Shown here: positions 26,545 to 53,500 of the stretch, piece after piece
How positions within the stretch are numbered: position 1 is the stretch's first letter
How the letters are laid out: every line of letters begins with the position of its first letter
DNA from: Candidatus Tantalella remota
GTDB taxonomy: Bacteria > Omnitrophota > Gorgyraeia > Tantalellales > Tantalellaceae
Assembly: GCA_030765685.1 (NCBI GenBank)
Contig: JAVCCB010000015.1
Coordinates: 8,113-72,112, forward strand
Length of the DNA stretch: 64,000 bases
Direction: 5' to 3'
Position numbers and translations under genes: made by a program
The notes under the pieces: generated by a model
Seen by the model: only the letters and a program-made list of their open reading frames with translations
What the model was told of the DNA's origin: nothing
Databases searched by the model: none

Positions 26545-29500
26545 ATGGGCATCCTCAGAAAAGGGACTGGGCGACAGTCTCTACATACTGATAAGAGTGG
26601 CTACTCTGCTGCAGGGGTAAAAGCGGCGGATGAAATATATGGCGTGACGACTTGGAGAAGGCGTCATGCCTTTTTTATTAAATGTGTAAGTATTGTTGTT
26701 GCCGTTATTTTTCTGCATCAGCAGACAGGATGGGCCCAAGCGGGCAAACCTGTCTGGGCCAACGCTAAACCCTTAGCAAAAACCTACAATGAGCATATGA
26801 ACCTTAACGGGATAAATATTCCGTATGATGTCGCGAAGACCCAGGAAGTGTGCGTGAACCCGAGTGAGGATGTCATCATACACGTTCAGGACGCGCATGC
26901 TTCTCTTTCCGCGCAGCATTCCATCGTTAACCTTCTCGATTCCCTGGTGACCAATTATGATCTGAGGCTTATCGCTCTTGAGGGAGCCTCGGGGTATATC
27001 GATACGTCACTTCTTAAGACTTTCCCGGATAAAGCAATAAGGGATGATACCGCGGAGTTCATGCTTAAGGAAGGCCGGATGAACGCGGGAGAGTTCTTTG
27101 CCGTGACCAATGACGGGCCGGAAGTAGAGATATATGGTATAGAAAACGATGCTCTTTACCGTACCAATGTCGAAAGTTTCAGGAACGTGGCAAATCAAAG
27201 GGCGCGGCACGTGGCTGATGTAGAGGGAATGCTGGGGCAGCTGGAACTCTTAAGTGAAAAGATGTGTTCTGAAGAGCTTAATATGCTGAACAGTAATTCT
27301 GTTTTGCATCGCGACGGGCGTTTAAGTTTCACGGATCACTGGAAGCACATGATCTCCCTGGTGGAAAAGTATAACATAGATTTTTCCAGATATGGGGAGC
27401 TGAAAAAAATACTCATGTCCATAGAGCTTGAGGGAGAGATTAATTTTGCTAAAGCTAATCTGGAAAGAAGAAGGCTTATAGATGAGCTTAGCAGGGAGAT
27501 GGACAAGGAAGACCTCGAGCAGCTGGTACTCAGATCGCTCGCGTTTAAGCAGAATAATATTTCTCAGGGGGATTTTCACAGTTATCTGATCAGTCTGGCG
27601 GAAAAAGAAGGTATAGAAGCTGCCGGGTATGAAAACCTGATAAATTTCACACGTTATATAGCCATATACGAATCAGTGGAACTGTTCAAGCTGTATCGTG
27701 AGCTGGAATCTCTCGAAGACGCGGTGAGGGAGAGAATCTATCGCAATGACGATGAGCGTGAGATATATCATATGACCAAAATGATAAGATTGCTGAAGAA
27801 GCTATATAGTATGGAACTCGTTAATACGGAATACGTGTATTTGAGGGAGAACCTGGGCAGGGTGAGTGTGCAGGATAACGCCCGGTTTATAAGAGAAAAA
27901 TGTGATGAGTACACGGTGCCGATAGCCGGAGCATATGACCTGGGTATGATATTTGGAGACGCTGAAGGCGCTATGGATTTTTACAGGCAGGCCGAAGATA
28001 GGAACGCGGCTATGCTGGCAAACACTCTCAAAGCAATGCGTATGACCGGGAAACACGTGGCCGCGCTTGTCACCGGAGGATATCACAGCACAGGACTTTC
28101 CGAGCTGATGCAGCAGAAAAAGCTTTCGTATCTTGTGGTCATACCTAAGTTCGAAAGCGGCAAGGAGCGTCCCTATATTGCTATATTGACCAATAAAAAA
28201 CGTCCATACCAGGAGATCCTGGAAAGTGGTCAGTACCAGCTTGCCGTAGAAGCGTATTTTTCCGCTACCAAGGGTGATCTTTCACGCATGAAATCCTCGC
28301 TTTTTCACGCTCTCGGAGAAGCGGCTATAGAGGGTAAGGATATTGCCGCGATAAAGAGGATATGGGAGCAGGCGTACCGGGAGAGATACGAGACCATAGT
28401 ATCGGAGAAGCTGGATCAGATGACGTTTGCTCCGGTCACACCGGAAGCGTTCGTAAGTTTTCTCGCGAGGGTCGAGGCGCAAAGGGTCGGAGACGCCACC
28501 GTGATAGCTGACCGGACCGGCGACGGTATCACTTTTATCGCCCTGATAAGAGACGGTGAATATTACGAGTTTAATCCGGCTTCAAGGTCCCAGAGGGTAG
28601 TTGTCGCCAGAAGATTGGCTTTGCAGGAGACCAGTGCCTCGACAGCGGAGGAAGAGGGCGCTGAAGATTTCGCGAATGCCCTGCAGAAGATCAGATCCGA
28701 TGTGGCTGATATCAAGTCGATGCTAAGCAGCATCATAGATACACGCGAGGAACTGATAATACAACTGGAAGGAGTATCTCCGGCGGATATAATGGCCAGA
28801 TTGCAGGACCCCGCGAACACGACGGCAAAGGAAGTAATATCAAAACTGCGTGCCAAGCAGATCAACGTACCGGCTGACTGGGAGGGCGATGAGGAGATCT
28901 CAGAAAAAATAAACGTTCTTGTAGCGGATGTCAGGAGTTCAGCCGCCTACATAGCACGGTCAGAAGCGATCGGGGAGGATTCTGAGCAGGAACCGACGAG
29001 AAAGGCGGGGGCAGCGGAAGGCCTTTCGGAAGGGGCAGAAGAACGTGTTGAAGCGCAGCCAACACCCGATGCGGCTACAGCCGCTTACATAGAACGGTCA
29101 GAAGTGATCGGGGAGGCTTCTGAAAAGGAACCGCGTAGGAAGAGGGGGCCTCCGGGAAGTATGATGGGACTCTTGATGGTATTGGGGTTATCACTTTTTC
29201 TGAATATATCAAGTCCGTCATTGGGGAGGGCAGCTACTCCGGTAGCTCATCCGGGCGGAGCAGTACCGGAATTGGTCCAAAAAGGCAGCGATGCTATGAC
29301 ATCGCGCGTAAGGGCGACACGTGAATCTATAGCCAAGAGCAGGGGTGCCGGCGCCAGGAAACAGTTCGCTGCGGATAAACAGAAGATGCAGGACGCGATA
29401 GGCGAATACTTTGATAATTTGCGACAAACTGATTATTTCAAGGACAGGGCAGCGAGAATAGCGTCGGCCGGAGACGGCAGTGATCCTTTAGTGCTGGATA

Positions 29501-32500
29501 CCTATATATCAGGCGGAAGATTCCTTTTAGTGGATGCGTACGAGGATGGATATTCCTGGACCGTTGATATGCCGGAGAGACGCATGGAAAAATTAAATGC
29601 GCTTATCGATAGGGTCTGGGTGTCGGTGGACAAGGACAGCCTGCCCGAATATATAAGGGCAAAGACCGTTACCAGACAGGCTGAAGACGGCACTTCCTAC
29701 GAGGAACCCGTCGATGATATATGGAAAATGCTTTTTGTTCTTTCAGTCCTGGATCCTGATACATACGACTATCTTGAAAAGAATAACGTCCGAATAGTCC
29801 TGGTGGAAACAGACTGGTTCAGAGGCGCTAACAGGGGTACAAGGTTCTGGCGCATGATAGCACCGGACGGCGCGACTATAGAAATAGACAGGAACCAGAT
29901 CGCCGAGATGGTCGGAACCCTAGTCCATGAGACGGTACATCACATGAATAGCGATGTACCCGACAGTCTATGGTCCCTTTACCGGAGCACTCTCGGATAT
30001 GGAAAAGAATTTTTCAGGGAATTGCCTTCGTATGAAGTCGAACCCTTCGCTCGGCAGCAGGAGTTTATGAGGGCAAAATTCCGTTTGAACGTAAGAATGG
30101 GGTTTTTGTCTAGCGCATACCTGGAGCAGAGATGGTTCTTCGGGATGATGAGTGTCCTGACGTGGATGATAACGATACTCGCTCCGGCATATATAGCGAC
30201 TAAGTACGCTGTCAAAAAAATGGGAGGGTTGAAAAGTATAGGCGAAAAAGTACAAAATTTTGTTGAAAAGAGGACGGGCGGCAGAGACGGGCAGACGAAC
30301 ACTGCTACGATAACGGTCATGGCGGTCATGGCAGCTACGGTCGCTACTGTCTTTCTTGCTGTACTTCCGGCACTGGCCAGACCGGGGTCAGCCATACCTA
30401 TGGCGGGATTATTGAAGTCGATGGCGCCGATGCTGGCTCTGGCATCGGTAGTGATATCAGCCGCGATAGTACTGTCGCGGAACAGGGCAAGTATAGCGGG
30501 ACTCATCGCCAACAGGCGTGAGAGACGAACGAAAAGACGGATCGAAGAAGCATTCATGGAGGCCCTGAACAACATGGGGGATGAGTTCAGGGGAGCCATA
30601 GACGAATCCGTAAAAGAAAATTTCCGGGTAAAGATACAGAATGACTTAACAAAATTGGAACCGCAGATATCCGCTTTGAGAAAAGAGCGTGAAAGGGCCG
30701 CTATAAGTCTGACTCAGGGAAACGCGGCCGCTCAAAAAGATATCAATGCCGCCGACCGCAAAATAGCCCGGCTTCTTCAGGCTGTCGAAGTTCTTAATAC
30801 AAGGCTTTCCAGCCACGAGAAAATATATGAGTTTCTCCAGGATCCCAAAGGTGTTATGCCGGCAGTATTAGAGGATGACGAATACCGGGAGACGCTGCAG
30901 AATTATATCGGTAAGATGCGGGCGCTGAGGATGTCGGGCATGTCGGATGAGGACATGGCGCGGCTTCATACTCCGGCATATTTTAAAAGCGTAATAGAGG
31001 CGATACCTCTTTTGACATTACAGGGGAGGGCGGAGAATCTTCGAAAGTTAGGAATAAAGATCAAACCATATCTTCTGGGATACCGGGAAGATACGATGAA
31101 AGAGAAAGTAAGTCTGCTTGCCCGGATGGGGATGCCCATTACGGCAAGCAATGTACGCCTTTCTCAGGTGAAGATGATCAAGACCGCGATAACAAGCTAT
31201 GTGAACGGAATACTCGCGGATGCCCCCGTGCAGCAGGAAAGAGACCAGCTGGCGGCTCTTGTAGAAAAAACCCTCACAGCGGATATGGAGGTCCTGGTAC
31301 ACCCGGATTATCGGGGCAAGAATCCTTTTTTAAGCAGCTACGCAGATGCCGTGTATGAGGAAAAAGACGAATCTGTTCTGACAGAAGAAGACCGAGATGC
31401 TTTGGGTAGAGAAAGGGATCAGCTTTCGGAATTAAGGGACAGGTATATGGCAGTGATAGCGTCACCCGCAAGGATGTCCGATGATGATTTTGAGGATCTC
31501 GGAGATTTCCTGACGCGTTTAAGCGACGGGGACCTTGCCCTTTACGCGGAACAGCATCTTAGTGAAGAAGAACTGGAAGAGTTGAATCGCTTGTCGGAGA
31601 AGACCATAAGCATTCCGCAGCAGGAGATACAGGCAGATTTTCTGTATAAGATAGTGTCCGACAAGACCATAAATGGCCAGGAGATATTTGACCGGGTACT
31701 GTACGAAGAGGGTGTTTACGCGCTTCCACAGAAGATGGTAGTCGAAGAGCTTGTGGCGGATCAGGAAGATATTCGCACGGCGCATAAAAAAGAATTTCGC
31801 GGGGCGGTGGACGCGGTAAAACAGCATTTGAAAAACCTGGATACAGCAAGGAGTCTTTATACCGCCGGAGAGTGGATCGGGCTGACAAGACAGATCTTTA
31901 AGATTCGGAGGGATTTCTCCCGGGATATGAAGGAGAGAATAAAGGCGCTGAGATACAATGATCTTTACAGGGACCAGGCGAGGATATTCGAACGCTATCA
32001 TGATGAGTATCTACTGCAGCTTATGGGAATAGATATATCGAGAAAAGATGACGGCACGCTGGATCTGGACAGGATACTTCTGGATCTCGGGATTATCGGA
32101 AGAGACAGGTTTAGGGAACTTTCCCGGGCGTTAAGCGTTATGTTCCCGGGCACGACGATATATTCACCTGTTATTCGGGCGATGGGATTCTTTTCGGGAG
32201 CAAAAGGATGGATGGAGTCCCAGTCTGAAAAAACAGCGCGTATGTTCGACCGCATACCGCTATTCGGTAGCATGCCGGCATACGCGAGAGTGATGTTAAT
32301 GATATCGATGGGCATAGTAGTGTTCGCGAGTTTCGCATTAGCGGCCCTTATACCGGCCGCGGCCCCTCCCACGCCCACGGCGCCCAGTATTACAATGGAG
32401 ACTCCTACGCCGCTCGGATATATGGAAACTCAGGTAGGTTTGGGGGAGATTGAGCCTATCCAGGCTGTTCTTAACGTGGCGGACATAGACACCAGTTATA

Positions 32501-35500
32501 CTCCTGAATACATGCAGGAATGGATAGCAGATCAGCTCAATGACGCGTGGCCTACCGGTGTGTGGGAAGAAGTTATTACACCGGAACTGGCGCCTGCCGC
32601 TCCTGTTGCTGAGCCGGAACTTTTGATCGCCCAGGCTGTCGATACGAATACGGTCATTGATACCGGCGTCACTCCTGGAATAACTCCGGCATCAGGAGCC
32701 CCGGTATTGGAAGCTCCTGTATCGGAGGCTCCGGCATTGGAAACTCCGGTTGTTGAAGAACAGGATATTCCGGTAATGGAGATCATAGATGTCGAAGAAA
32801 TAACAGTGGACGAAGTTAAAGAGCATCTTACCGTCGAAGGAGGTTTCAGGCTACCCCTGTTAGGGAGACTTTGGGGAGGGACTACACCCGAACGTGAAGA
32901 AGCTGCCCGGAAAGCCATAATACTTCTTTCGAGGGTGGAAAACCCCCGTCAGCAGAAACAGATGTATAAACTGGGTAAAAAATCAGTGAACCGGATGAAA
33001 TCAGAAGATGAGGATTCTATTCTCCGTAACACATTGTACGAATTCGCGCTTGAAGAAGCCAAAAGGCTTCAGGGCGATGATACATATCAGGGTGATGTCG
33101 AAGAAGTTATAGGTTCCATACTGGACAGTGTCAGGACCATACCGCAGAGAGGTACCTACGATAAGGTCCGCGAAGGCCTTTTATCCAGGCCGCTGCTTTC
33201 TGATACCGATATGCTTCTTACGCTACTTACGGCGGATAACCTTCTTGACGAGAGGCTGGATATCGATCTGGCGACCATTAATTATCTTAAGGAGAACGGC
33301 ACCGGCGGCATTTTCGGGAATTTTAAGGTATGGATAGGGCTCGGATACGATACCCGATCGGAAAGCCTTAGCATGGCGCTTCCCGGGGTATCTCTTACGC
33401 TGTTGGACCGGGGAAAAGACGCGCGCGTTTCCGAAGCTATGGCTAATATAGGAAATAAGCGGGCGGAATATTATGCTTCTACAGTATCCGCGATGAGGGA
33501 TTTTTTCGTATTGTGGCAGAACGCGAACCAGATAACTGACGAAATAGGACGTCTTGAGAAAGGCGTGGCAAGACTTAAGGTAGAACTTGAGCAGGCGCAT
33601 GAAGAGGACAGACCGGGGATACTTTCCCGGATAAGGACCGCCGAAGGTATGGTGGATGACGACCAGGCTGAACTTGGAAAGATAACCGCGCGTATCAAGG
33701 CTCTCATGGGTATTCGCCCCGATAGGGCGATATCACTGGATTTTTCAAAACCCATCTCTCCGGATGCCATAGATAACGCGTTCAGGATATGCGCGGATTA
33801 CGGTGTGGAACTGGGCGCTCCGGCGGACGTGATCAAGGCCAATGCCGGCGCGATATGGGGAGCAGCCAGCGCGGAAGAAGCCGATATCGCAGGTATAAGG
33901 ACAGTCACCATCGGGGCCAAAGTAGATTTTCTCAATATTCTTACCGACTGGGGACTTGTAGGATTAACGGGGACGCTGGACCTCCGGTGGGGCAGGACCA
34001 TGACGGAAGCGCACGCGGAATTTCTTAAGGCGGTAAAGACCATGTATGCCGAAATGTCAGAGAAGGACGCGGAGGTAAAAAAAGTAACGTTACTTAGAGT
34101 TCAGAGCAGCACGAGGGCGCTCCTGGCTTCTATGGACGAGAATATAGAACGGCTTGAAAAGATCAAGAAAGAACATGAAGCGCCGGCAAAGAGGTGGACC
34201 AGAAACCGATATGATTATATGCAGGCAATATTTGATATCCAGCACGCGCGTGTGATAAGGGACCAGGTCGAACTTCAGGTACAGGCTGTATGGGCTGAAC
34301 TCGGTCTTGAATACCGGTTGGTAGAGGGAGTACCCGAGGCAAGAGCGGTGATGGATATGGATGCCGTTATGCAACAGGTGATGGACAGGATCACTACCAG
34401 AGGAGACATAAGAGAACTGGAGCTTCTGAAAACGAGGGCTCTTGGAGAGTTCAAGGCAATGGGGATAACTCCTCCCGAAAGCATGACAGGCGAAAAGGTG
34501 GGAGCGGGCAGGACCCTGAGAAATGCCGGGGTGCGCGCCTTGACGACCATAGGGCTTGGTGACGGGATAACGCTAGGGGGATCTCTCACAGGTCAGGATA
34601 TAGCTGGCGGGTACGGGTGGATGGAGGATATAAGTGAATCAAGAGAAGATATAACCCGCTGGTGGACAAGTTTCGGCATCGAGATACGGCCGGAGAACGC
34701 GTTAGGTCTATGGCAGCAGTACTGGGAGGTGACCTATAAAGAAGCGGATATGCTGATGAAGAACAAGGTCTATAGATGGTCCTGTGATGTCCTTAGTATG
34801 ATCAACAGCTACAGGGGACTGGAAGCTCAGCTGGCGAGCGCCGAGAGGCAGCTTGAGCTGGCAAAAGAAATACAGGCGGATATTCTGGCGGACAGGTACT
34901 CGACGGTGGAAGAAGCGGATATGGTAGACAAGTCGGCAGAGTTCGTAAGTGAGAAGAAAGCGCTGCTGGAGACAGTACGGGCGCAACTGAGCGAATCAAT
35001 GAATATTTCTCTCGATGATGTTGCCGGGGAAGGTGTGGTTAGTGCCGATGAAATAGAGGGGCTTCTGGCAAGGACTCTCGAGTCCGCCGGGATAGAAGGG
35101 TATGATCCGGAAGGCGCGGAAAAGGAACTTCTTGAAACTGCCAGGCAGAAGACGGTCGTACTGCTGCGTCTGGCAAGGTTTAAGAAAATGGAGGTGCCTG
35201 TCGGCATCGCGTGGGAGTCGTATCAGAAACTATCCCCGAGGCGCACTCAGACGACCGACGACGCGGGAAATGTCATAATGAACGATCTTACAAGCCAGGC
35301 TTTTACCGAAGACGTTACGGACGCGGACGGCGCTACCGTAACGGATTATGTTACCGAGAATACCAGGGAATATTATGTCGAGTGGACCAGTGTCCTGGAA
35401 AATCTCCTGCAGAAGACCGTAATCGTAAAGAGACCAAAAGCTGTTGTGGATAAAGCTGATTTTGACCTGGAAAGGTGGCCGTCAAGGGCTACCAGAGTAC

Positions 35501-38500
35501 GGCGAATAGCGGTGGCCGACCGTGAAGAGGCCAGCGACAATCTTAATTCTTCCAGGCAGGAGCTTATGGATCAGGATACCGCGCTTGCCGGCCTGATCGA
35601 GAGATATGCGGCTTATGATCCCTATGTTACCCCGAGGATGATAAGGTACCAGGAGAAGAAGGTGGAAGGTCGGCGCAGCGAGGTTATCGCGAACGAGGCG
35701 GCTCTGGTCAACGCGGATATACGTCTGATAAGGGTCGCGGGAGTCAACTGGAGAGAGACCGAAGGTCCGCAAGCGGAAGAGAGGGACTATTCGAGGGAAG
35801 AAGTGATGCATAAACAGATACAGGCGGGGCTGGATGGATCTGAAGCTTTCATAAAGATGTTAACCGATTACGTGGATGTAGATCTCAGGCTTAGCGTTGA
35901 AACACCGAACATAGACGACAGGCTCGATACGGTCGACGGATACCTTGCCGATATAAATGGATGGAGAGATTATCTGGACAATGAGAGATGGAACAGCTAT
36001 AGCTGGGCAGACAGCGGATCCGGTGGTGATACTGTAGGAGAATCTATAGATCCAAATACAGGTACAGTAACGCCCGCGGATGATTCACAGCAGAGTCAGC
36101 AGCAAGCAGGGCTAGACGCCACCCGCGCGACTTTAGATGGATATGAAGAGCAGCTTAATGAACAGAAAAGTCAGCTTGAAGATATAAAGAAAAGACAGAT
36201 CGCCGGTTTTATAGACTGGAAGATAGAAATAAAGGTGAGACCGTTCGCGGAGCTCGCCGACGCGGGAAAATCGAGAAGAAAAGCCAAGGACGCGGAGGCG
36301 GAGGAGAAGCAGATCGAGTACGCGTTCGCTTTCAGGATGATACAGGATTATGTGCAGCTTCAGGCGGTACGCGAAAAACTGGCAAGTGAGCAACAGCTTG
36401 AGGCGAGTGTGCGCGTATTTCTTGAGGAGGAAATGGCGTTCAAACAGGAGATCAGTCCCGACGCGGGGATGACGGACAGGGTCAAGCAGTTTACCAGCGA
36501 ACTTGAAGAGATAAAGGATAACATAGCCGCGTACAAGTACCAGCTGCGCCACCTGGAAAAAAGAGGTACGAAAGGGCTTAAAGCCCTTGTGGATTCCGGT
36601 GTTCTTGAACTCACATATGTCGACGAAAACGGACAGATAAGAGAGATAGATATAACACAGGTGGATCCCGCCCTTTTTAATAAGGTAATGCAGACCGTAC
36701 AGGAAAAATGGCCGCAGGTACAGAGGTCTGTTCTCGCGAGAGAGATATCGGAAATAAACCTGGCGCAATTGAGCATACCGAGAAATTTGGCCAGCAATTT
36801 TGAGATAAGGCATCCTTTTGGGTCACGGGAGGAGTTTGGCACGAGACTTGTCCTCGGGATTTACGTGAACATAATAGAACCGGGGAGAGCCTACAGGAAG
36901 GCCTCGGAACAGGTATCGCTTTGGATAAACGAGGCAAAACAGCGGGATGCCGAGATCTCCTTTCAGAACACCCTTAAGGCGCTTGAAACCCGTATAACAG
37001 AATATGCCGAGGCCATGATACGCCATCAGGCGGCATATCAGAATGGTGAAAGATCGATAGCTGAGGCTATGGAGAACTGGGGGGACCTTGACCCCAATGC
37101 TCTGATAGTTCTCGGAGAGACCAGGTACACGATGAGGGAAGCCCGGGAGAATTTTATCGAAGCCAGGGCAAATTATAATGAGGCGATGCTTGAACTTCAG
37201 GTATATGTACACGTACTGGGGGACGATAAGCCGGAGACGATGGCAGAGTTGTTGTCGCCTGTTACGGCGGAAGAAAAAGCTACGATAACGGCCGCGGGAG
37301 TTTCTCCTGACCAGGTTCAGGCGGAGGCGCTCAAACTTCCCGCTCCGGACTGGGTAACCGGACCGGCAGCGATAAGAGACGCCGATATCCGAATAGAGAC
37401 AGATATCTTTCTGAGCAATGTGCTGAGCGATCGGGAATACACCGAAGATGAAGTGGACCACTGGGTAGGGTATTTCAGGTATCTCAGCCAGCCGAATTTC
37501 AGGGATTACACTAAAGATGAAGCCGTCAGGCATATAACAGGTATGACATGGTGGGCCAAAAAGATGATGCCACGATTGGAGGGAGTCGAAATACCGGACT
37601 TTTTCGGACGTTGCGTCGATCCCTATTCATTAAGCGACCGCGCGGCAGAGAACCCGATGATAGGGTTTATAGATTTTGCTATGGCTTATGAAGAATACAT
37701 GATGGCACGTGGTCAGGAATCTATGGGACGGGACGCGGATCCTGAAATAGCCCGCAGACGTACGGAAAGAAAAATGGACGAAGTTATACAGGCTTTAAAA
37801 ACAGGCGGGGCGGAGCTTGAGGCTTTGAAGACTGAGATCGATAAAGTAGGCCTCGCTAAGAACCCCGATGACTGGGATCTTAAGCTTGTAATGATGAAAA
37901 AATACGGCGACGCGATCACCGGTCGGAACCTGCGAGTGACAAAATATAACTTTGCCGACAGGCGCTTTCTCGCGAACCTTTATACCTACACGGTATTACA
38001 TTCCCTGACGCCGGAGGAAACCGATAACCTCTACAGTACAGTGCTTCCGGAACTGGTCAAGCTTGTCAATGACATCGCGGGTGATTCGCTTTCTCCGGAA
38101 AACATCCGGGATCTTCCCGGCGATCAGGCAAAATATCTTAACTGGCTGTATGAACAGATGGATGAAGTCCCCGCCGAAAAACAGGAACGCCTTCAGGGTT
38201 GGATAGACGCTTACAGTAATATGCTCGCGGAGAACATCGCGTTGGATAGGGCTATGACGCTTTTGACCATAGCTAGTGAAAACACCGCGACTTTGCAGGG
38301 AATGGGTATCGATACGGACCTGGCTAAGGAAATAAAAAAGTTAAAGTACAGAAGCGATGTTCTAACAGCGATAGCGATGGGAGAGGCCGCGCCGAAAGAT
38401 ATGGACAAGTTCATGAGCCTGATGAGTACTTCTATGGACAAGGAGTCTATAGAAGCCGGGACGGGAGAGCTCATACCCAACATAAATATAGTCCCGCGGG

Positions 38501-41500
38501 GCTTGAGAAGGACGCGTGACGTGTGGACCGGGATCCTGGGCCCTGACGGTATTTTCGACGGGCGTCATGTGCTTTCTTACAGATATAACACGGATAACAG
38601 TTATTCGGTGGATTATCAGGCGCCCTATTATGTTCCGTCCGCGACAGAAGTGGATGAGGGGATATATACGGAGGTAGCCAGAAAAGAAGCACAGGCCCAT
38701 GGTGGAATAAAGACCTCGGATTATGACAGCAGTGATAATTTCAAAAAAACCGTTTTCGGCGACAATACCGAGAAAGAGGTCATTTCCGGGATCATAGGTC
38801 CGGACAACGATTATGAGGTCAGAATAAGCGGATCTCCCACCCCGGCAGAGAACAGGATATACGTTTACAAAAAAGGAGTACTTACGGAAATACGGAACCT
38901 TGAGGGGATGTTTATTAAGAAGAGAGGGTATAAAGGAGAATTTCTTTATGACGCGCATACTACAGATGTGAATGTGCTGCGAGGCGCGGGGATCAATGAG
39001 AAAATGGCAGGCAGGATCTTTGGTTCCAGACAGGCCGCTCCCGATGAAGTTGTGAGGGAGGTCGAGGGCATAGAGATAGCGGATGGAGTGGTGACCGGGG
39101 ATATAGTCGTCATAGCGGATAAAGATGTGGTAAGGAAACTCCTGGTGGATCATCCGTCTCTGGGGAGTCCGGACAATAAAGCGCTTGTCGACGCTTTATT
39201 TTACGCCCAGGGGGATAACAGGTTTACGAACGTCCGGATGGGAGAACTCATGACGCTTGGGGAAGCATCCCGCGCGACCATAAAAAGTTATCTGGAAAGC
39301 GCCGCCCGGAATATAGGCAAAGACGAGATAGATTTTGATCTTACTGATATGGATACCGCTGACAGTTTTGTGTGGTGGACGGCTGCTGTAATGAACGGAC
39401 AGGTACCGGACGCCATATATGAAGGTGATATGGCACCGGTCATGGCTAAGATGGCTGAAATAAGCGAGTGGCCCGAGATAAGGGAGACAGCTGAATTTCT
39501 TATCAGTTACGATAACAGGGCCCGGGAGAACGGGGAAGTTGTCGGAAACGTTTACAGGATGTTGTACAGTAATGCCAGGTCTATTATCGAAGGCGAGATG
39601 ACCGGGAAAGAAGCCAAAGCTCTTATCAAAGAGCAGCTTCACGTGGTAAGAGAAGCTTATATGCTTGTGACGGGAGAGACGCCGTATGGATATCAGGAAC
39701 TGACCTCGGAAGAGAAGACCTCCATGCAGAGAATACTTGGAAGTAACTATACTCTGGTGGGAGTCCTGGGCGCGTTGGCTGTAGGGTTGTTGTTTGTTAT
39801 GAGGGCAAGGAAAAGAAAAAGAGTAGCCGAAGGCGCTTTGAAACGGGTAGGGCTTGACGAGGATACGGGAGCGGCGGCAAGACTCCTTGATGCGCGAAGG
39901 GGAGACCTTGAAAGAGCAGCGATAAATTCTTTACTGGCAGGAAATAAGGAATCGGAAATACAGGATACCGGTATCATGGCGATAGTTATACAAGAGGACC
40001 TGGGCGATGTCGCCGCCGCGTATCAGTTCGCCTCGGAGTCAGATGACGAAAGGATAAGAGGAAGGGTAATAATAGTGCAGAACACTAATACCCTTTTTAG
40101 GGGGTTCGAGGACGAAGCTTTATATCATGAGGCGCGCGAAGCTTACTGGATGGACCAGACAGGTGACAGGAGCGCGGCGCATATACTAGCCAGTGCTGAA
40201 CAGTCGCGCCGGTTCGCGAGGGCCGAGCTCGGAGGACTTACTCCTTATCACTATCAGGAGATCGGGAAACTGGGTAGCTCGGAAGCGGTGGAAAGACTGC
40301 AGGGCGAGGAAAGAGCGGAGCATCTGAGGGTGCTGGCTGAATATGGGATGACCTGGGCCTCTGATTACGAAGACGCTTTTCAGTTGCAGTTATCTGTCAG
40401 GCTTGCCGAACTGCTCGCTGAAGAAAGGGCAATAGCATTGCCTCAAGTGACGCCGCCAACGGCTCCGAGGGCGCCCGCTGTTCCGGGAGTAACTCCGGAA
40501 TTTTTTGATAAACAGATAACCTATAGCACAAAGTATCTCTTATCTCTTCAGAATAATGTCAAAAAAGCCCTCGCTGATGCCGTTAAGAAAAAAGAAAAAC
40601 GCCCCTTACGTAAACGTATAGCCAGTTATTTTATTAATCCCGGTTATGAGTTCGTCGAAGACGATCAGAAGGTCATAGCCCGGTCGATAATAGAAGCCTG
40701 TGACACCATGCGGTCAGCTCTGGACAGGGCGTCTTCCATTAGAGAGTCTTTATCTGGATCGGAGTCTCTTGGGATAAAAGCTATCAATAGCGCCTTTGTT
40801 AAATTGGTCGATATGCTGAAACCGGAAGAAGAGGCCTCTGTTATAGGAGTGCAATCCAGCCTGACTGGGAGACTCCGGGAAGATGGCGCTAAAAAAACCA
40901 ATCTGGACAGGGAAAGGGAGACGGGCGAACTGGTGCTTGTTTTGCAGAATCTCAGCAATAATCTGGTATCTATAGAGTCCGTATACGCGACCGCCGGTAT
41001 AACGGACCTGAGAATAAACAGATCCTACACTCTTCCAGAACTTATCGTAGAGGTGCAGAACTCCCTGACGGAGAAAAAACCGATAAGTTCCGGAGCGATC
41101 GCGGCTATTTCCCAGCTTACGGAAGAGTTTTTCTTCGCTACCGCGGGGAACGAAATAATAGAGAACCTGGCAGTTCAGCAGTCCTTCGGGCCTCCGGGTC
41201 ATTTTCTCAAAAAAACATCCATAGTGAAAGATCTCCGGACCACTCTTGATATCGCTGAAAAGGAAGCGCGGGCGGTAGAGAGCGGCCAGGCGACATATGA
41301 GAAATATTTTGTCGATAGAAAAAAGAAATTCGGTTACGCTCCCTCAACAAGCATAAATCTGTCAATAAGGGCAAATAACTTCATCGAGCTCTCAATGACA
41401 GATGACGATAAAAACGTGATCTGGGAGGGGACGACCGTAGAGGGCCTCGAAGGGGTAGACGAGGTCACCTCAGGTGTGGAGTTTTACGGCAAAGGCAGGC

Positions 41501-44500
41501 AGCTTACCACTTTTGAAAGCCTTATTCCCATAATATTCGGTATGACAGAAAGATTAAAATCCGCTTCAGAGATCGGTGCGCGGTTGAGGGCCAAGGGAAC
41601 CTCTATGCCGCTGGCTCAGGTGACCGAACAATTATCCGGACCTCTCCGCAAGGCAAGAGTAGACGGATATGTCACTCAGAGCGAGCATCTGGGAGACGAT
41701 TCTTCAAGGGAACCTGTGCGTGAAAGGCTGGGCTTGAGATTCGCTGTTACGGTACTAGCCGCTGCCGCGCTTATGTTCGCTTTCGGAGCTCTTGTGCTTC
41801 CGAATCTTCCAGCGGGACTTTTTCCCGCGGTGCATGAACTCACAGCTATCGGCATCCTTGATCCTCATGCCAAAGCCTCGGCGGCAACCGGAGTCTTCTT
41901 CTTTTTTAAACAGCTGGTCACCATGGTATTTTTCACAATAACCATAACCATGATACAGAAAAAATATCTTGCTGATACGGGGCTTTTTAACAAGACGGGT
42001 CTCGTGAGGATCCTTGATGACGATATAGGTAAGGCGGTGCCCGACAGAAGGATGGCAGAAGCGGTGGAGGGGATGAAAGAAACCCTGCCCGCGGACAGCC
42101 GGCAGAATTTTCGGGGTGTAAAGACCCGTAAAGAAGACGGGTCGTACGAAAGCTCCAGTAAGATAGCCGGCGAACTTTCCAGACCAATAGGCCTGAAAGG
42201 GTTTTTCGAGAAATCAAAAAAACCCATGAATGTTGTGAGGAGAAGCGGTGCTGAGGGCGCGGATCCGTTCTTTTTCGTTTACCTCAACAGCGTTACGAGA
42301 AAAGAAATGGTAGAAGCTCTTTTAAGGGCGGAGGAGAAGGCTACCGGAACCCTTTCCGGGGATCTTGTTGATTACTTGAACGAGCAAAGAGCCGCCGGAT
42401 ACAGGGTCGATGGAAAGATAGTCGTCAGCAACGAAGATATTATCAGAAAGATAGAGGAGGGAGCTCCGGAAAGAGCTGAGAACATATACCAGGCGCTAAA
42501 AGAGGATAAAAGGTTTTTCATCCATGTAGCAAGATGTACGCCTCTTTTTGGGGAACCGTTCCTGCTTGAGACAGTTAACATCCGCAATCTGGACACGGAT
42601 TATCCCAACCTGACGGTGTGGCCGGCGCTGGTGGAGCATGACCAGAAAGTGACGGACAGGTTTACGGAGCTCGTAAGCCAGGGCAGGATACCCGACGATA
42701 TGCATGCCCTGCTTTCCAGCCAGATGGGTGTTCAGAAACAGAATCTTCCTATAATAGACGAGAAAGAAGCCAGATCTCGGCTTGCCAGAGGCGAAAGCCT
42801 GGAAGGTGTGACGCTTCTTACCGCGGAGGACGGCCGTGTGAAAACAGGGTGGGACATGATAGAGCGTCTTCCTGAGACCAAATCGGTCGCTACCGGGTAC
42901 GCTATAAGCGCTATGGAAACGGTAGCGGAAGTTTTGCGGAACAGGGGGACCCTTTCCGAGGATGACAGTCTTTTTATGGCTGTGCCGGATTTCTCGGAAG
43001 CGGGCGCTCCGGAAGTATTCGAGATACTGGATGCCGAGGACAGGGCCAATACGCTTCAGCCGTGGAGCATAGCCATAGGGTTCAAAAGGATAAATACTAT
43101 AGTGGAATATCTTCAGGAAGTAGTCGAGACTGAGGGCTATGACGCCATAAGGCCGGCAGTGTTGAGAAGAAGTAACAGGGCGCTTTATAACGAGATAACA
43201 AGGTGGGGTATAGACCTGCTCATGGTAACGGATACCGTGAACGATTTCCGTAAAATGAGGGAAAAAATGTCCGCGTCGGCGGAAACCAACCGATATATTG
43301 ACAAGCAGCAGGAGATATTCGAAGCGTCACTGCTTTCTGAAGAGGAACTCGCCACGCTTGTAGGGGCCGAAAAAGAAAAGGCTCTGGAGAAGGCATTTGT
43401 TATGTCGGAGATGCGCGCGAGACTGTCGCCCGCTGTTTTACAGGGCGTATTGCGCCTTAATCCCCTGGGAGACAATCCTTTCACTACGCAGGATTACGGT
43501 CCCTGGAACATGATCAAAAGAGGTCTTGTCGCCCAGAGAAGCATTATAAGCCTTCTCGGCGGACTTCTAAGCGGCGGGTTGATCGCGTATGTGGCATTTA
43601 CGGCGTTTTCATATTTTGGTTTCTCAGCGATGGCTTACGCGGGCGCTGTTATAGGGGGGTCGATAGGGTTTAAAGGAGCCATATGGCTTGTGGGCAATCT
43701 GGTCCTCAAGTACAGGCACTTATCGGAAGGAGTGGAACGCAGCATAAATAAAGCGTCACCGTTCCCGTATGACGGCACCACCAACTCTTTCTGGCTGGAA
43801 AAACTTGTTGGTCGCAACATGCGCACGGGTGAGGAGACTTTCAGGGGCAAACTTGAACACGGTCTTTATGAATACAAGAAAGGTCTGTATGAGCTCGGGC
43901 CCGATGATGCTGAAGCTAACGCGGCACTGGAGTTTATGGCTACATTTACGCCGTACAGGACGCTTGGTATCCACGACTCTAACGATATTATAGAAGACGC
44001 CAAGCTCGGGTCACTGTGTTCTAAGTACGGGTATAGGAATATGATAATAGCGGATTACGGTACGGAGACTTTTGAGGCTAACCTGCCTGAACTCGGTTAT
44101 GAATGGTGGTATCAGAGATCAAGGTGGATAACAATTACGCCTATAGCGGTCATGCTGAGGTCGATGAGGGATTTCTTCATATTTTTCGGAGTCATCATAG
44201 GAATGGGGTTTGGCGGGGCTCTTATGGGGTCCCGTATGGTCGGGCTGATGGGAATACCACTGGGGCTTATAGGCGTGGGGCTTGGAGCTGTTGCCGGGGG
44301 ACTCATAGGTAACGTTCTTGGCGGTGTCGCGTACCGGATAAAAAGAGCTTTTGGGCGGGCGCCTTATCCTGAGCAGGAATCGAGTTTTGCCAAGCAGGCG
44401 GGTGTATTTAACTTTATGCTTCTTATATTCCTTCTTTTCGGAAAACCCGCGACGCTGATGACGACTTTTACATTTGGCACGACCGGTCTTCTCGCGGCAG

Positions 44501-47500
44501 CTACCGGCCTCGCGAAATTGGGGTATTTGGGAAGCTACGCGCAGGTCATTATGACGTTCGCTCCGCCGATGTTCTGGTTTATAACGAGCGCGGCGGTGGG
44601 GCTCACGCTTTTTCTGATACCTTTCTACATCATCTTCGAGATGTCGGTTTTCGGGGCGCTTTTCTCGGGACCCGATAATGAATCTCTTGTAAGGGACGGC
44701 CTGGATCGGATGAAGGAAACGGCCGAGAAATTTCAAAACTATAAAATATCTGTCGAGGCGAGGAGACTCTCGGGGATACTTAAGTACAGGCCTGAAGACA
44801 AAGAGGCGATAGAAGAAAGCGTGGCGAGCATGAGGGAATTGCTCTTTGAACTAAGCTCCCCGGATGATACGCCGGAAGAAGCGGATCTACGCGCTTTTGA
44901 CGAGAGGGATATGGACAAGAACTGGCGCGTGCAGAGCGTTCTTGACGCGGTCCTTGACGGCAGTCGGGATACGACGCAACTCAGGCGGGACCTGAACCAG
45001 ATAGCGAGGGATAAAGCTATCTCGCTTAACCCGAGCCTTCAGGTGAGGGTTAAGATAATGGAACATATAGACAAAGCTTTCGATAAGTTCGCCGTGACCG
45101 ACAGTTATTCATATGATGACATGATAAAGGTACTGTCGGATATGCGGGAAGGCAGGCTTGGTTTTAATAAGGGCTGGCAGATCGATATGTTTGACGACGC
45201 GGTAATGAGGTTCACGAAAGCTGTCGAGACACAGAAGCCCGCTACGCTTGAGGATGCCGTAAAGATACACGAAGAGGAAATGCGTCTTATTGGCGACGCT
45301 ATTTCGACTAAGATCGCGGAAATCAGAGGGAGGTATGACGAAGTAATAGCCGGAAAGATCTCTTTCGGTTCCCGCGCCGCCATGATGGCGGCAGGTCTCA
45401 TCGCGGGTGCCGCGGTACTTTGGGCGAAGAACCTGATAATTCCCGGAGTGGCCGTGACTATGATAATCTCGGGCATAGCCCTGAGCGCTCTGTGGCTTAC
45501 GTCAAGGGCGGGGATAAAAATGGGTATTGGTATGATGCCCTATTTTTACCTGAAACAGGTAGTCATATCCCTGCAGATAGCCGTACTTTATTTTATACAC
45601 ATGATCCCGGCAGCGAAAATAACGCTGGAGCAGATATGGGCGAGGCGTGACAACTGGTGGTCGAGGACGTCTCATGATGAGAGAGAGATACTCCCGGAAT
45701 CAAGGGCCAGATACGGTGAAAAGGTCAGGGCGAACATCCGGGAGATGTTTACCCGTAGAGAGAGGGTAGGAAGGTCTATGTTCGAGACGCCCGCGGTATC
45801 GTTCGCCTTTTTTCTGGCCTCTATGACGTTTTTACTGCTTTTGATAAATAACGGTCTTACCTGGCGCATGAGGGACGCGGCGGTTGTCGGGCTCTTTCTG
45901 TCATCTGTGCCGCTTATCTGGAATACTCTGATGCTGCGTTTTGACGAGGTGGGAAAAAGCCAGTTTTTCAGGCCCGCTATAAGTCTGGCGGGAGCGGGGT
46001 TTGTTATTGCCTCCGCCGGCCTGGTCTCACTGGGGCTGAAGACGATGGGGTATCCGCTTTTTGTCGCGCCTTTTGCCTTTGAGGCCACGGTAGCTCTTGT
46101 GGGCATAGCGATGCTTTCGGCCGCTATATTTACGCCGAAAGACCGCCTCCGAGAGATATACATGAACATATACAATAAGTGGATGCTTTACGCGGTCGTT
46201 CTCGGCCCCGCTACGGCGATGCTTGTTCTGCTGCCTTTTGGTCAAAATCTGCTCGAGGGCAGAAAAACCAGGTTTATCGAAGATAACGTAAATCCTATGG
46301 TAGAGATATACCACGCTTCGCGTTCGGGAGATATATATTTTTCCACGGAAGATGTTATGTGGAGACTCGCGCAGGGTATGCCGGCAGAAGGGAAAAGCCA
46401 GGCTGAGCTTGAAGATTTCAGGAAGAGAGCGTCGATCATAAGGCAGATGGCACGCATGAGGGATGAAGGTATAACCAACACTGACATAGCCGAGAACCTG
46501 ATAAACGCTTTTAAGGATTGTCCGTATCCTTCCGGACCCGATGGCCTGGCGGGATGGGTGCGGATAAACGCGGATATTTTCGCGGTAAAAGCGGGTATAG
46601 CTAAAGGCACGCTTCATGTCCAGAAACTTAAAGATTATTACGAGAAACAGATAGAAGTATACGGTTTTGACCGGACAAAAACCGACCTGGCCAGGAGGTA
46701 TATAGAGTCTATCGAAGCCTATGAGAAAGACGAAGTGGAAAGGGGAATATCCGACCGCGAGTTGCGGGGTGATTATGATCTTATACGTATACAGCTCGAA
46801 GCATACCGAAGGCTTCTTATGGAAACCGGCGATCCCGCGGCGCAGTTAAAATATCTGCATATAGTGGGTATTGTGGAGAACAGTATAGAAGGCGTGGGGA
46901 TCTCCGAAGTATGGAACCTTCCTTCTGTGGAATATGAGGATTTTGAGCTGTCCTTCTACAAAAAGGAATACCTGACCACGGTAGACCACGTGTCTTCCGG
47001 GGCCAGGAAAGAGCAGATGCCGGAAGCCCTGGATGAGGATGCTATAGTTACGGATCCGGTAAAAGGAGAGATAACAGCCAAAATAAATATTTCCAGAGAA
47101 AGAAGAAGTAACGTTATAGGGTTGAACGTACAGGATATGCTGGGCAGGCCCTTAGCGGAAGACGAACAGATGGTACTCACAGTTACGGTCCCGGAAAAGT
47201 TCGTTACCGGAAACCCCATGGCAAGCATATCACTGCAGGGAGTCTGGAGTGATTCCGGGGGGAACTGGCAGCATGGTGCCCATAACATTGTGTTCGGTGA
47301 AAGACCGCTGGCTGACGGTCAATACAAATACAACATAGCTATAAGTCCTCTTGATGAATATGACAGTTATCAGTTCGGTTATTATACCGACGGAGGTTTT
47401 AGCCCCAATTCCGCGGATATGAAAGTAGCCGGGATAAGGGTGCTGATAGGTAATGCCGATCAGATACAGGATAGTTTTGAAGGCGAGATAACGATACAGG

Positions 47501-50500
47501 GACGGATACGAAAAGTGCAGAAGATGGAAAAACCACTGAACGTGAGAGGCGACGCGACCGGTGGAGAGGAATTCCGGAAGAACTCGGGGATGAGCATAGG
47601 CCTTTCTTTTCATGACGTCGGGAAGTGGGGCGCCGCTGAGCATGACGGGTTCTCTTCCGAACAGGGGAAAGCGAAGCTGAGAGAAACATTCCGCAATTTT
47701 GCCGAGGACGGAATAATGAATGTGAGGATGCAGTCGCTTTTCGGCGACGGCAGGGCCGGTCTTGTTTTTGATGACGCGGGCAATTTTACAGGATTTGATG
47801 ATTATGTGGAGTCAGATATTCTCGCTCTTTTTGAGGTGCTGGATGAGATACGGGTGGATTATCCCGAGTTCAAGATAATGCCGGTTCTTTTCAGTTTTGA
47901 GCTGGCTGACGGGACCACCTCGGAGAATGGTTTTACTATAGGGGAGCACCCGGAACTTTTAACCGATAGTGAGAACAGGGATGTTCTTCTGAGTGAATTG
48001 AACAGGGTTTTCGGAATAGTCTGGGGGCATGAGGGCGTGACAGCGTGGGATCTGTTCAATGAACCGGAGATAGCCCACAACACAATGGATGCTGAAGGTA
48101 ACCGTGTCCTGAATATAGGCGAAGTGCAGGAATTCGTAAGGCTTCTGGCCCCCGACATACAGAGACAGGGCGGAGACGTGACCGTAGGAAGTTTTACCCG
48201 GACACAGATGCTTAATAACTGGCTTGATTCGCCGCTGGATCTCTTGCAGTTCCACTGGTACGACAAGTCACCGTATAACGATATTAACTTCTTAAAAGCA
48301 TGGATGTCTGACGGGCGTCCGGTAATAGCGGGTGAGATAGGCGCGCTGGGGAAATTCCCGGTACAGTTGCAGGGCGGCGATATACGCGATATTGCCGAGA
48401 TGTTGAGAAGAAGCGGGGTAAACGGCGCTTATCCGTGGCAGGATTGGGGAAAATATGACAGGGGTACTTCCAGGAATTATGCTAAATGGCTCGAAAGCCA
48501 GTCCAAACGGCCGGTATCCGTTCCGGAGGAAGCTGAAGCTCCGGTAGTGAAACCGGTTTCCGCTCCGGAGGGGAAACCTCTGCCGCCGGTATCGATGAGG
48601 CCTGCGAGGCCGGTTATCCCAAAGAAACTTTTTCGCGGGCAGTTGCCCCGGCGTACCGGCATGATGGGGCTTATCCTGGCTATAGGCACTGTTTTTATGG
48701 CGGCAGGGCAGGGAAGCGCGGTTGCCGGTGAAGTGGCTATGCCGGTTGCTTTTACGGGAGCGGTAGCTCAGATAGTTTCAACGGCAGGAACTATGGTTGT
48801 TGAGGAAACAGGACCAGGTGTTATTTTTGCTCTGGCGGAGAGGGTCACGGCCGGACAGCTTCTGCCTTATGCCATAGGGCTGGTTGTATTGGTGGGACTT
48901 ATGGCGTTTACAGTGTATCTCGCGAGAAAGAGAACGCGTAAGGAGATAGAAGATCAGTTCGCTGTTGAAAGGCGGGAACTGATAGATGCGCGGAGGATAG
49001 GTGCCATAGAAAACGATGATGTCCGGGAAATGGAAGCGATGCTTATGGAGGATACCGAGTTCGGTACCGCCGCGCGGGACGAGATAGCCAGGTTGAAGGC
49101 GATCGGAGATACGGCAGATCTTGATAAGTTCATAAGAGAGACGTTTATCCAGCGTTTTAATATAGACCTTACAAGGACAGCTTTGACCAGGGAGGATTAT
49201 AAAAAAAGAGGATACGACACGATCATCATAAGTTCTTCTTCAGCGGACGATGCCGCGGCGAAAAAGCTGGCGGTACAGAGGATGTTCCGGGGGCTTCCGG
49301 TAGAGATATTCTCCGAAGTTGTATCGAATGACGGCGGCCAGATAATGGGGCATATGACAGTGCTTGAAGCGGCCAGAGAGAACGGCCTGGACCTTGATGA
49401 GATGTTCTCCAAAAAGGGCGGTCCAAAGGTAGCCGTATGGCATGACGGCGGAATGGCTTCAAGGTTCAGCCCCATAACTCCTTCGTTGAACGATGCCAGG
49501 GGCTTACAGGACCTAGTGGGAAGATTCGAAAATTCCCGTCTTGAGATGACCGACGCGGAACTTCTTTTTATGGTAATGCTCAACAGTCTGGATTTTGGTA
49601 GTACAAGTACGGCGACCACCGTGGACACTTTCTGGACCAGCCAGATAGTAGCGGGAACCGTGGCTCACAGCATGATAGAGCGTAGTGACGCGCCTTTCGT
49701 AAAATTTCTGGTGCCCATAGACTGGGATGTTCCTAAGGATCTTTTGTATAAGCAGCTTCTGCAGTTCGGAACCGTCACGACGGATGAGAACGGGTATATA
49801 AGGAATTTTTATGGGAATCAGAAGAAAAGTTGTATAAGAAAAGCCAAAGACGGCACGCTTGAGATCAACCCGGACCATCAGTACATATATGACGATCTGA
49901 AAAGCGCGCCGACGGCGTATTTTGATTTCGGATCGTTCAGTATGAATAATGCCATGCTAAAGGCGCTTTACGATTACTGGATGAAAAAGACCGCGCTGGA
50001 TGACGATGGTAACGAGTACCGTATAATCAGAAAAGCTGTTGAGACCGGTGTCGTAGCAAAAGAGTTGAAACGCGATATAGATCCGCATTTCACCCAACCT
50101 CTCGCGTTCCTGCTGCAGGCGATAGTAAGTGAAAGGAATTTGGGCAGGGATATGCTTGAGGGGATCACTCCCGTGGATGCTTTCAGGCAGTATACGGGTG
50201 AGGAGAGGAGGCTCCAGCTGCAGAAACAGGTGGCGCTTATTAGGCAAAGGCTGCCGGGCGGGGCGAGGGTCAGGATGGGTGAGTTTTTTGAAGAAGAAGT
50301 AGAGATCGAAGATGCTGAGAAACCCGGAGAAAAGAAAAAAGTAAAACAGATCGTAATAGATAAAAACACCGGAAACCCTGAAGAAAAGATACTTGATCCA
50401 GTCACAGAGACCATAGAGATATTCCTCCTGAATAGAGACAATCCCGATATCTTCCCCGAAGACCTGAGTAGGACCCTGGGATCCATAAGTCTGGGGCAGA

Positions 50501-53500
50501 ACGCCGAGTGGCAGACTTACCGAAGCGCGTACGATATAACCAATGAAAAGCTCTTCATGTTGACAGACCTCAAGGGGAAGATCATACACATAGCAAATGA
50601 AAAGAAAAAAGACGAAACGTGGGAGACATCCCCTGTGGAGACGGAACCGGAGCCGAGGGATCTGGTGCGGGCGGAGAACGCCCGGCGTATAAGGAACATC
50701 CCCGACGACGCGCTCTGTGATTTTTACGTTAACGGCAGGCATATAGTGTTGTCCAGAGCCGAGATAACCGGACCTGAGCCGTGGGAGGGAGAGGGTGTAA
50801 GGATACATAATTCGATAGTGCAGGGATCGATACTTCTGCCGGGGTCGGAGATCATAGACAGCGTCGTGGATAAATCCCAGGGACGGATAATAGCGACAGC
50901 CTCATACGTGCAGAGAGTGACGGTCAAAGATCTGGATGCTGAGAACAGCCTTGTTCATATGGTGGTTTCGGACGGCGCGGTCGAATCCCGGGGAGAGATA
51001 GTCAGTGACGTTTTTAGACCGGAGCTTCTTACGGACGAGTATCATGACGGCAGATTCTTTCGCGGTCAGACCAGGTTGCGAGTTCCCATGTATTATGATC
51101 CTAAAGAAGAAGATGAGGTGATATATGGGGATAATAAATTTGCTATAGATAGAGATGAGGAGAAAGTTGAAAGAGGCGAGGTACCGGATGAACTGGTCAT
51201 ACGCAGGATGGGCACCGTAAGGAGTCAGAACGAGGATATCGAGAGCAAAATACGCATACAGGCAATGATAATAGGGGGTATGAGGGAAGCTCTTGAGGCC
51301 CGCGTAAAAACGCTTAAAAATTCCGGGAAATTGACCGCGGGTTTTGTAAAAGATATTTTTAAGAATCTTGACCTGTACGGCCCGGCTGATCAGTACGCTT
51401 TGGCAGAGATAGTTTATTTCGCGAACCTCATCCACAGTATTTCACAAGACCAGGCTGTTCGCGATATCTCAGGCAGTGCGATGAAAGAGCATGTGTTTTT
51501 TGAACGCATCAGAGAAAGCTTTCGCGGTGCCGAGTATGACAGAGGACCGAGACAGGCAACGAACCCTCAAGAGACGGATGAATTGTTCAATGAGCGTTTG
51601 GGAGCTCTCAAGTTTATATTCGACCAGAATATAGACGTGATGGACGGTAATAACAGGTTCAAGGTATTTTTATGGCTGGAAGTCCTTGTGCATACGGATG
51701 TCATTACGACCTCGGCCCTTAAGGGGCTTCTTATAGATCTTGAAAGGCGTCTTCCCGATGATATATCTTTCGGGTCCGTGATGGAAACAGCTTATGAGGT
51801 TCTTGCGATACAGGGGTATCCTTATGATGATACGAACTCCGGATATTACGTATTAAGGCGTAATTTTCTTAATATGGTCAGGAAGGCCGTTCCGCTGAAG
51901 GAATACTCGCTGGTGGGAGATACTGACCTGGGTGCGGTGGTGGACCAGGGGATGCAACGGATAAGACAGGAGCGATGGAAAAACGGTTCCCCGGTATTGT
52001 TTTATGAATACTCTGAAGATGTGGACACGGTCCCGCTTCCTAATGGCGCGGAATTTGATATTGTTAACATTCCCGGACGATTGGCGTATGAAGAACATAA
52101 AAGAGCAGAGAGGCCTTCTGCCCTGGAAGCTTCGCAGGAGGAACTCCCGGTCGTTGGGCCCAAAATAGTGCGTGAACATGACAAAAGCTGCCGGTTCAGT
52201 GCGCTGTCCAAGCAGATGGTTTGTGCGGTAACGCGACACGGCGTGGAGTTCGATGTTTTCGCGAACATAAGCCCATTTGGTGAGAATCATGTCGTCATGG
52301 CTACGCATGAACCTTCATACCAGCTGATAGATGATGTCGAGAAAGCGCAGGCTTTGTTATATTTCGCCCGAAGGCTCGGTCCGGAATACGAGGGTATTTT
52401 TAACAGTACAAATGCCGCGGCAAGTGTCTTTCACTTCCATGGCCAGTATATCAAGGCTAGGACAAAACTATGGGACAATATTCGTGACTCGAAAGCACGG
52501 ATAGACTGGGATCCCGGATATTTTAATTATCCGGCTGTTCGGGGCGGGACACTGTCCGGCTGGCCGGCGAAAGTGAGATATATGGAGAGTTCTGACATCG
52601 GTCAGCTCGGGAGAGCCATAATGGCTGATGTGAAGGATCTTGAATCAAAAGATATGGCATATAACCTTTCGTTCCGTTTTGAGGACGGAAGATACAAGGT
52701 GATGGTATTCCCCAGAAAAAAGGAAAGGACCAAAACACTTACACCGAAAAGTGATATTTCTCTCGGTATGGGCGGAGTGGATCTGTCCGGACGACTTATA
52801 GTCTACAAACCGGGTGACAGGCAGTATCTAACTGAAGACCTTGCCAGGACCGCGGCTAATTTTGAAACGGTAATGCGGGATGAGGTGACGGACGCCTACT
52901 GGGTATCGCCGCTAAGCAAAACATGGTTGCAGTCGGTAAAGGACGTGGTTGTCAGATTATTGCCGCCGTCCAGAGAAGAGCATCCGATATCATGGGGAGC
53001 CTCGGTAGCGGCTTCGGCGGGATATGGATTGTTCGCGGGTGGGCTCGGCTATTTCTTTGGCATAGGCGCGCGACATATGGTCGTACTTATTTCTACGCTG
53101 GCGATTGTTTCTATCATATATCTGATGCAGGCGTTGGACCTGAAGTACGATGCTCTTGCGAAGGCGCGGGACCTTTTCGGTAAGATCATGCCCAAACGGG
53201 CTGGCCCCGGTCTTGTGCCTCTTTTTAGGCCCAACTTTGATAACATACTTCCGATCCCGCAGGATTCACCGTATCTTACCTATGTAAAAGACAACAAATT
53301 GTATGTGAACGTCAAAGAGATGTCAAGACGTCCCGCTCTTGTCCAGTATTTCTATTATTTTCATGAATGGTTCCATCTGCAGGGGGTAATGTCACACTTG
53401 GTATTGTACGGAGTGCAGGGCATGCTTCTGGCAATACTTCCGCAGATAGTTCTTGGCACACTTGCCGCGAACACCAGCATGAATTTCAGTATAGCAATGG

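Follow-up and report, generated by a model that had tools for sequence, protein, structure and literature searches.

In an uncultured Omnitrophota bacterium, two neighbouring and very large genes, ORF2 (26545..57873 on the forward strand, 10,442 aa) and ORF3, begin with a common module of ~600 residues. This head consists of a hydrophobic leader followed by a divergent alpha/beta core of the TIKI/EreA/ChaN/TraB superfamily, and the thousands of large and giant membrane proteins of Omnitrophota that carry it form a family hitherto without annotation. We favour, with a probability of roughly 0.45, the view that the head is an active membrane-proximal hydrolase which would be held at the membrane by its leader and act in biogenesis or processing.

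Within the window (the whole stretch of 64,000 nucleotides analysed here), BLASTP aligned ORF2 residues 39–643 with ORF3 residues 3–593 at 36% identity (60% positives, 14 gaps, E=9e-133), which bears out the homology of the two N-termini proposed in the initial annotation. All four sequence blocks quoted there are present in the alignment, but the module runs ~60 residues further than claimed, ending at aa 643 (nt 28473) and not aa 580 (nt 28285), and the span given for it, 26545–28285, covers the ORF2 copy while the partner copy (58981–60759) lies outside. ORF3 starts at an ATG at 58981 with GGGAG 4 nt upstream, and is still open at the window end. Searching a six-frame translation of the window with a profile of the module recovered two copies only, those of ORF2 and ORF3, and no further internal copies were found in ORF1 or ORF2. 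Outside the module, no mutual similarity between ORF1, ORF2 and ORF3 was detected by BLASTP at E≤1e-3; the head is the sole part that ORF2 and ORF3 share, the proteins being otherwise unrelated, as had been stated. Both copies are on the forward strand, 32 kb from each other, and the intergenic regions upstream of both have repeat elements in common. These features would suit a local artefact, whether misassembly, a bias of composition or low complexity, or a duplication or gene conversion of recent date. Such an origin is extremely improbable and we rule it out, since the copies are only 36% identical, closer relatives exist in other genomes (at up to 64% identity to the ORF2 head and up to 54% to the ORF3 head), thousands of family members occur across some 60 or more assemblies, and the conserved positions form specific motifs and not a compositional bias. 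The heads of ORF2 and ORF3 are the same ancient domain and not a recent local copy.

AlphaFold models were obtained for the heads of ORF2 (pLDDT 82.7, pTM 0.74) and ORF3 (pLDDT 82.4, pTM 0.73). A helical insertion divides the alpha/beta core, a parallel sheet flanked by helices as in the TIKI/EreA/ChaN-like superfamily, and the core leads into a helical tail (Table 1). Conserved positions of the ORF2 module are F56, QQ59-60 and W63-A64-Q65 in the leader; the invariant Q115-D116-x-H118, E146-G147, G150, D153, E183-F184, G198 and E200 in the N-terminal half of the core; and the invariant E296, Y480 and R486 in the insertion. The C-terminal half contains the strand VAALVTGG-Y-H514-STG and a second strand, SYLVVIP, and an invariant R542-P543-Y544-x-A-x-L-T...Y555 motif falls in a low-confidence loop of the ORF2 model.

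Table 1. Coordinates of the ORF2 and ORF3 heads and of the sequence that follows them in the window.
Feature	Position (nt)	Strand	Residues	Basis or remark
ORF2 start ATG; upstream sequence GGAAGGTGA	26545	+
K/R-rich stretch before leader (RRRHAFFIK)	26545..26670	+	ORF2 aa 1-42
Hydrophobic leader helix FFIKCVSIVVAVIFLHQQTGWAQ	26671..26739	+	ORF2 aa 43-65	AlphaFold helix 42-65
TIKI-like alpha/beta core, N-terminal half	26830..27147	+	ORF2 aa 96-201	AlphaFold, conservation
All-helical insertion in core, ~300 residues	27148..28047	+	ORF2 aa 202-501	AlphaFold
Core, C-terminal half	28048..28212	+	ORF2 aa 502-556	AlphaFold, conservation
Helical tail of module; ORF2/ORF3 similarity ends	28213..28473	+	ORF2 aa 557-643	BLASTP, AlphaFold
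ORF2 remainder, cargo of ~9,800 aa	28474..57873	+		~24 hydrophobic segments
ORF3 start, short K/R stretch (MSRDHKIFK), leader IIALVVAGIFLYQQIVWAA	58981..59061	+	ORF3 aa 1-27
TIKI-like core, N-half (Q75-D76-C-H78, E106-G107, E159)	59146..59460	+	ORF3 aa 56-160
Helical insertion with E255, R438	59461..60336	+	ORF3 aa 161-452
Core, C-half (GG-H-H466-AEG) and RPYVAVLT loop	60337..60504	+	ORF3 aa 453-508
Helical tail of module	60505..60759	+	ORF3 aa 509-593	BLASTP, AlphaFold
ORF3 remainder within window	60760..64000	+		No BLASTP kinship with ORF2 cargo

Five positions are invariant across the relatives, namely D116 and H118 (180/180 each), E146 (179/179), R486 (169/169) and the histidine of GG-x-H514 (166/166), and in both AlphaFold models these residues lie at strand ends. 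They are arranged as D-x-H with E 28 residues further on, and R 28 residues before the second H. This matches a known 2His/2Glu+Arg constellation, the spacings being 2, 28 and 28 in the module against 2, 28 and 29 in RRSP (E3900-x-H3902, E3930, R4001, H4030), with the same 28 in Bcr135 (H85, E113; PMC6254334). On the strength of motif position and spacing we assume that the five residues come together in one pocket. Overall identity among head relatives falls to 26–54%, and invariance of the five positions in spite of this is the signature of a catalytic site. The same residues might instead bind a partner or a structural metal, in a non-enzymatic head that serves membrane targeting, anchoring or scaffolding, or binds a ligand or cofactor as ChaN does. 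Some TIKI-fold proteins are indeed not enzymes (ChaN and the PMT C1–C2 domains lack hydrolase activity), which also speaks against our proposal; the metals of EreB and Bcr136 are structural and not catalytic (PMC6254334), the helical bundle at aa 202–501, which has invariants of its own (E296 among them), could provide a surface for interaction, and a strict N-terminal place after the leader would fit very long membrane proteins that are targeted early by SRP/Sec. We nevertheless consider a non-enzymatic head unlikely, as PMT, which is non-enzymatic, has lost the 2His/2Glu motif, whereas the head keeps all five positions in each of 166–180 sequences.

The initial annotation had likened the start and end motifs to those of the TraB/GumN family. 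The motifs themselves are invariant and of catalytic type (QD-x-H, LEG and RN...GG-x-H-x-x-G), but membership of that family did not hold: hmmscan with PF01963 gave no match at E≤1 for either head or for 40 full-length relatives, and the best PF01963 score, E=0.09, came from one of 16 constructs from which the insertion had been deleted. At the C-terminus, R486-N487...G511-G512-x-H514-x-x-G517 conforms to the TraB-type R-N...G-x-x-H-x-x-G motif, with R, GG and H invariant in 166–169 sequences; in the hhalign alignment R486-N487 falls on R228-N229 of YbaP, and H514 on H252 (G249-A-L-H252). The register of the N-terminal half is uncertain because hhalign pairs LEG with the second ELEG of YbaP and not with E67. 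Against the YbaP/TraB alignment, hhalign returned low probabilities, of 4.7% for the full alignment, 14% for the core only (P=0.002) and 24% for the N-half (P=0.00085), the YbaP comparison set (subfamily alignment A2) being shallow, with members 65–82% identical to one another. In Pfam, the two heads, the 40 relatives and the 16 cores lacking the insertion gave sub-threshold matches only (PF04187 at E=0.068 for two family members, DUF5682 at 0.045–0.1, PF01963 at 0.09), a search of NCBIfam with the module gave none, and phmmer and hmmsearch against PDB sequences produced chance matches only, such as troponin C and an SDR. None of these sequence-level comparisons was significant for any known family, a point against our proposal. 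Since no Pfam or NCBIfam model, PF01963 included, detects the module, it is a new family of the superfamily and, by HMM standards, does not belong to TraB/GumN.

The TraB/PrgY/GumN family (PF01963; E. coli YbaP, Enterococcus PrgY/TraB, vertebrate Tiki1/2, TRABD) has the alpha/beta core in common with the module, as well as a first strand followed by a His motif, a next strand followed by an acid, and the C-terminal motif described above; many of its members (PrgY, Tiki) are likewise N-terminal and tethered to the membrane, and peptidase activity has been either shown or supposed for them. In contrast, the first motif is Q-D-x-H in the module and G-x-x-H in the TraB family, the module alone has a ~300-residue helical bundle before the last two strands and measures ~550 residues against ~250, and unrelated cargo of thousands of residues is attached to it. 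EreA/B/C and Bcr135/Bcr136 share the His-to-Glu spacing of 28 and also carry a helical lid inserted in the core. The Ere enzymes, however, are soluble, ~400 aa long and act on macrolide lactones; the module has no sequence match to PF05139, and the comparison gives no hint of a macrolide substrate. ChaN (PF04187), to which two members of the head family showed the weak match noted above, is a small haem-binding lipoprotein and HopBA1 a 217-aa type III effector, and both lack the helical insertion as well as the fusion architecture.

The initial description of the leader as a signal-anchor is plausible, but the two lines of evidence on topology disagree on the membrane side of the head. Before the hydrophobic stretch 36 relatives average 3.8 K/R, and after it 1.9; the h-region spans ~12–13 residues, and positions 62 and 64 are G/V/T and A/S/T ahead of Q65. 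Judged by these features, the leader has the charged n-region, h-region and small -3/-1 residues of a Sec signal, and that of ORF2 reads as a Sec-signal-like or anchor segment. Downstream, the loop of the ORF2 hairpin at 1256–1310 is poor in K/R and the flank after TM2 is strongly basic, and 27 first hairpins across the family average 2.8 K/R before, 0.9 in and 2.3 after. By a crude Kyte-Doolittle and positive-inside analysis, this charge bias suggests that the head may be cytoplasmic, and the contradiction with the leader counts against our proposal.

The head family comprises 5,915 to 9,283 clusters at 50% identity, and all of its named hosts are Omnitrophota, frequently with several copies per genome. 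No relatives were found in viral contigs, and the head is therefore not a phage feature. In all 83 ORFs from GTDB genomes the module begins 2–102 codons past the upstream stop; 68 of these ORFs leave the locus end, and 30 of the 68 are by then at least 3,900 aa long. It is likewise N-terminal in all of the best 150 of 9,283 cluster representatives, on proteins of up to 7,834 aa. In 15 of 53 loci an RND pump operon was observed upstream. The head is found also on ~1,000-aa proteins (P0014 and P0019), where polyprotein cleavage seems unnecessary, an observation that speaks against our proposal. Two apparent fusions, P0049 and P0050, in which the module breaks mid-domain into an acyl-CoA dehydrogenase or TGT on ~2.2-kb contigs, are probably chimeric assemblies and were rejected as true fusions.

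PPDK_N (aa 9498–9825) is the sole Pfam match in the remainder of ORF2, and with 10,442 aa, its hydrophobic segments and this domain ORF2 is an Omnitrophota giant of the 'Archaeovorin'-like kind (West-Roberts 2023), a class of proteins from this phylum that exceed 10,000 aa and have numerous TM segments but few, divergent domains (such as SecA_DEAD or PPDK). ORF3 has a cluster of TM regions at aa 649–743, a Glu/Leu/Phe/Val dehydrogenase at aa 836–1232, a P-loop kinase-like region at aa ~1290–1350 and further TMs at aa 1573–1652. It is identical to P0096 across all 1,673 in-window residues, and because this full-length counterpart has 3,128 aa, the earlier term 'giant proteins' suits ORF2 while ORF3 is large rather than giant; P0096 additionally contains a cell-wall hydrolase domain and an M50-like peptidase motif. 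ORF1, which exceeds 8,205 aa and contains SecA_DEAD, Metallophos, TPR and GT2 domains, is open at the left window end, and no copy of the module was found in its 8,205 in-window residues. Its missing head probably lies upstream of the window, because its colinear homologues P0148 and P0185 begin with the module; this agrees with the earlier suggestion that the true N-terminus of ORF1 is upstream.

A hydrolase of TIKI type could also act in trans, as an exported esterase or peptidase directed at the envelope of prey or host or at the cell's own envelope, with no part in maturation of its carrier. The invariant catalytic-type residues and the signal-peptide features of the leader would suit this, TIKI effectors are known (RRSP inside giant MARTX toxins, the type III effector HopBA1), Omnitrophota giants have been proposed in the literature to degrade prey cell surfaces, and full-length ORF3 also carries its cell-wall hydrolase domain. 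A parallel is RRSP (DUF5) of MARTX toxins and PMT C1–C2, a TIKI fold within a very large multidomain bacterial protein: RRSP has the same acid-x-His...28...Glu pattern as the module, an Arg ~28–29 residues before the second His and a membrane-localisation helix N-terminal to the catalytic core, and it is metal-independent. RRSP is, however, an internal cargo effector, freed by a separate cysteine protease domain to act on host-cell Ras. Effector domains normally shuffle in position and copy number, whereas the Omnitrophota head occurs once per protein and always as the first domain (83/83 ORFs and the best 150 of 9,283 representatives), and the hairpin charge bias would place it in the cytoplasm. 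An action in trans thus appears somewhat unlikely.

We return to a membrane-proximal hydrolase acting in biogenesis or processing; such a function, like the targeting, anchoring or maturation role suggested in the initial annotation, is inferred. The leader would bring the nascent chain to the membrane early and keep the head there, and the head would work as a hydrolase through its His/acid/Arg site, most likely as a peptidase like Tiki, RRSP or PrgY, or alternatively as an esterase like EreA-C. Its action would be in the biogenesis or processing of its own carrier protein or of neighbouring giants. A precedent for this position exists in other Omnitrophota giants, where C39 and S8 peptidase domains have been reported near the N-termini (West-Roberts et al. 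2023 preprint). These stand where the head does, in proteins of the same kind and beside a predicted signal peptide, and have been proposed to cut the giant into pieces (West-Roberts et al. 2023), although their folds and catalytic types are unrelated to those of the head. In its strongest form the idea would make the head a self-contained maturation device, a TIKI-type peptidase that cuts or trims the polypeptide behind it or its tandem neighbours, with the giants being membrane-assembled polyproteins and the invariant RPY-x-A-x-LT loop serving as a lid or pseudo-substrate. We regard this form as unlikely. No repeated candidate cleavage motifs resembling the RPY loop were found in ORF1, ORF2 or ORF3, which counts against our proposal as a whole.

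Recent preprints describe Omnitrophota giant genes of 85,000–147,000 codons, whose products are said to be poorly conserved and almost without annotated domains, with N-terminal regions that 'lack identifiable domains'. The head belongs in those remaining N-terminal regions of giants for which West-Roberts et al. report 'no identifiable domains'. What is new is a strongly conserved, structurally assignable and probably catalytic N-terminal domain in thousands of large and giant proteins of the phylum, the first conserved handle on otherwise unannotated proteins. Its sequence can mark where such genes truly begin when assemblies are fragmented, and it allows the giants to be classified and the swapping of cargo behind a constant head to be traced. 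The putative active site (H118, E146, H514) offers a mutable target for asking whether giants are processed, and the TIKI/TraB/EreA superfamily gains a large family that is confined to one phylum and is unusual in its insertion and its fusion to other sequence. If the head is indeed a maturation device, the largest bacterial proteins known would be made by a new principle of biogenesis.

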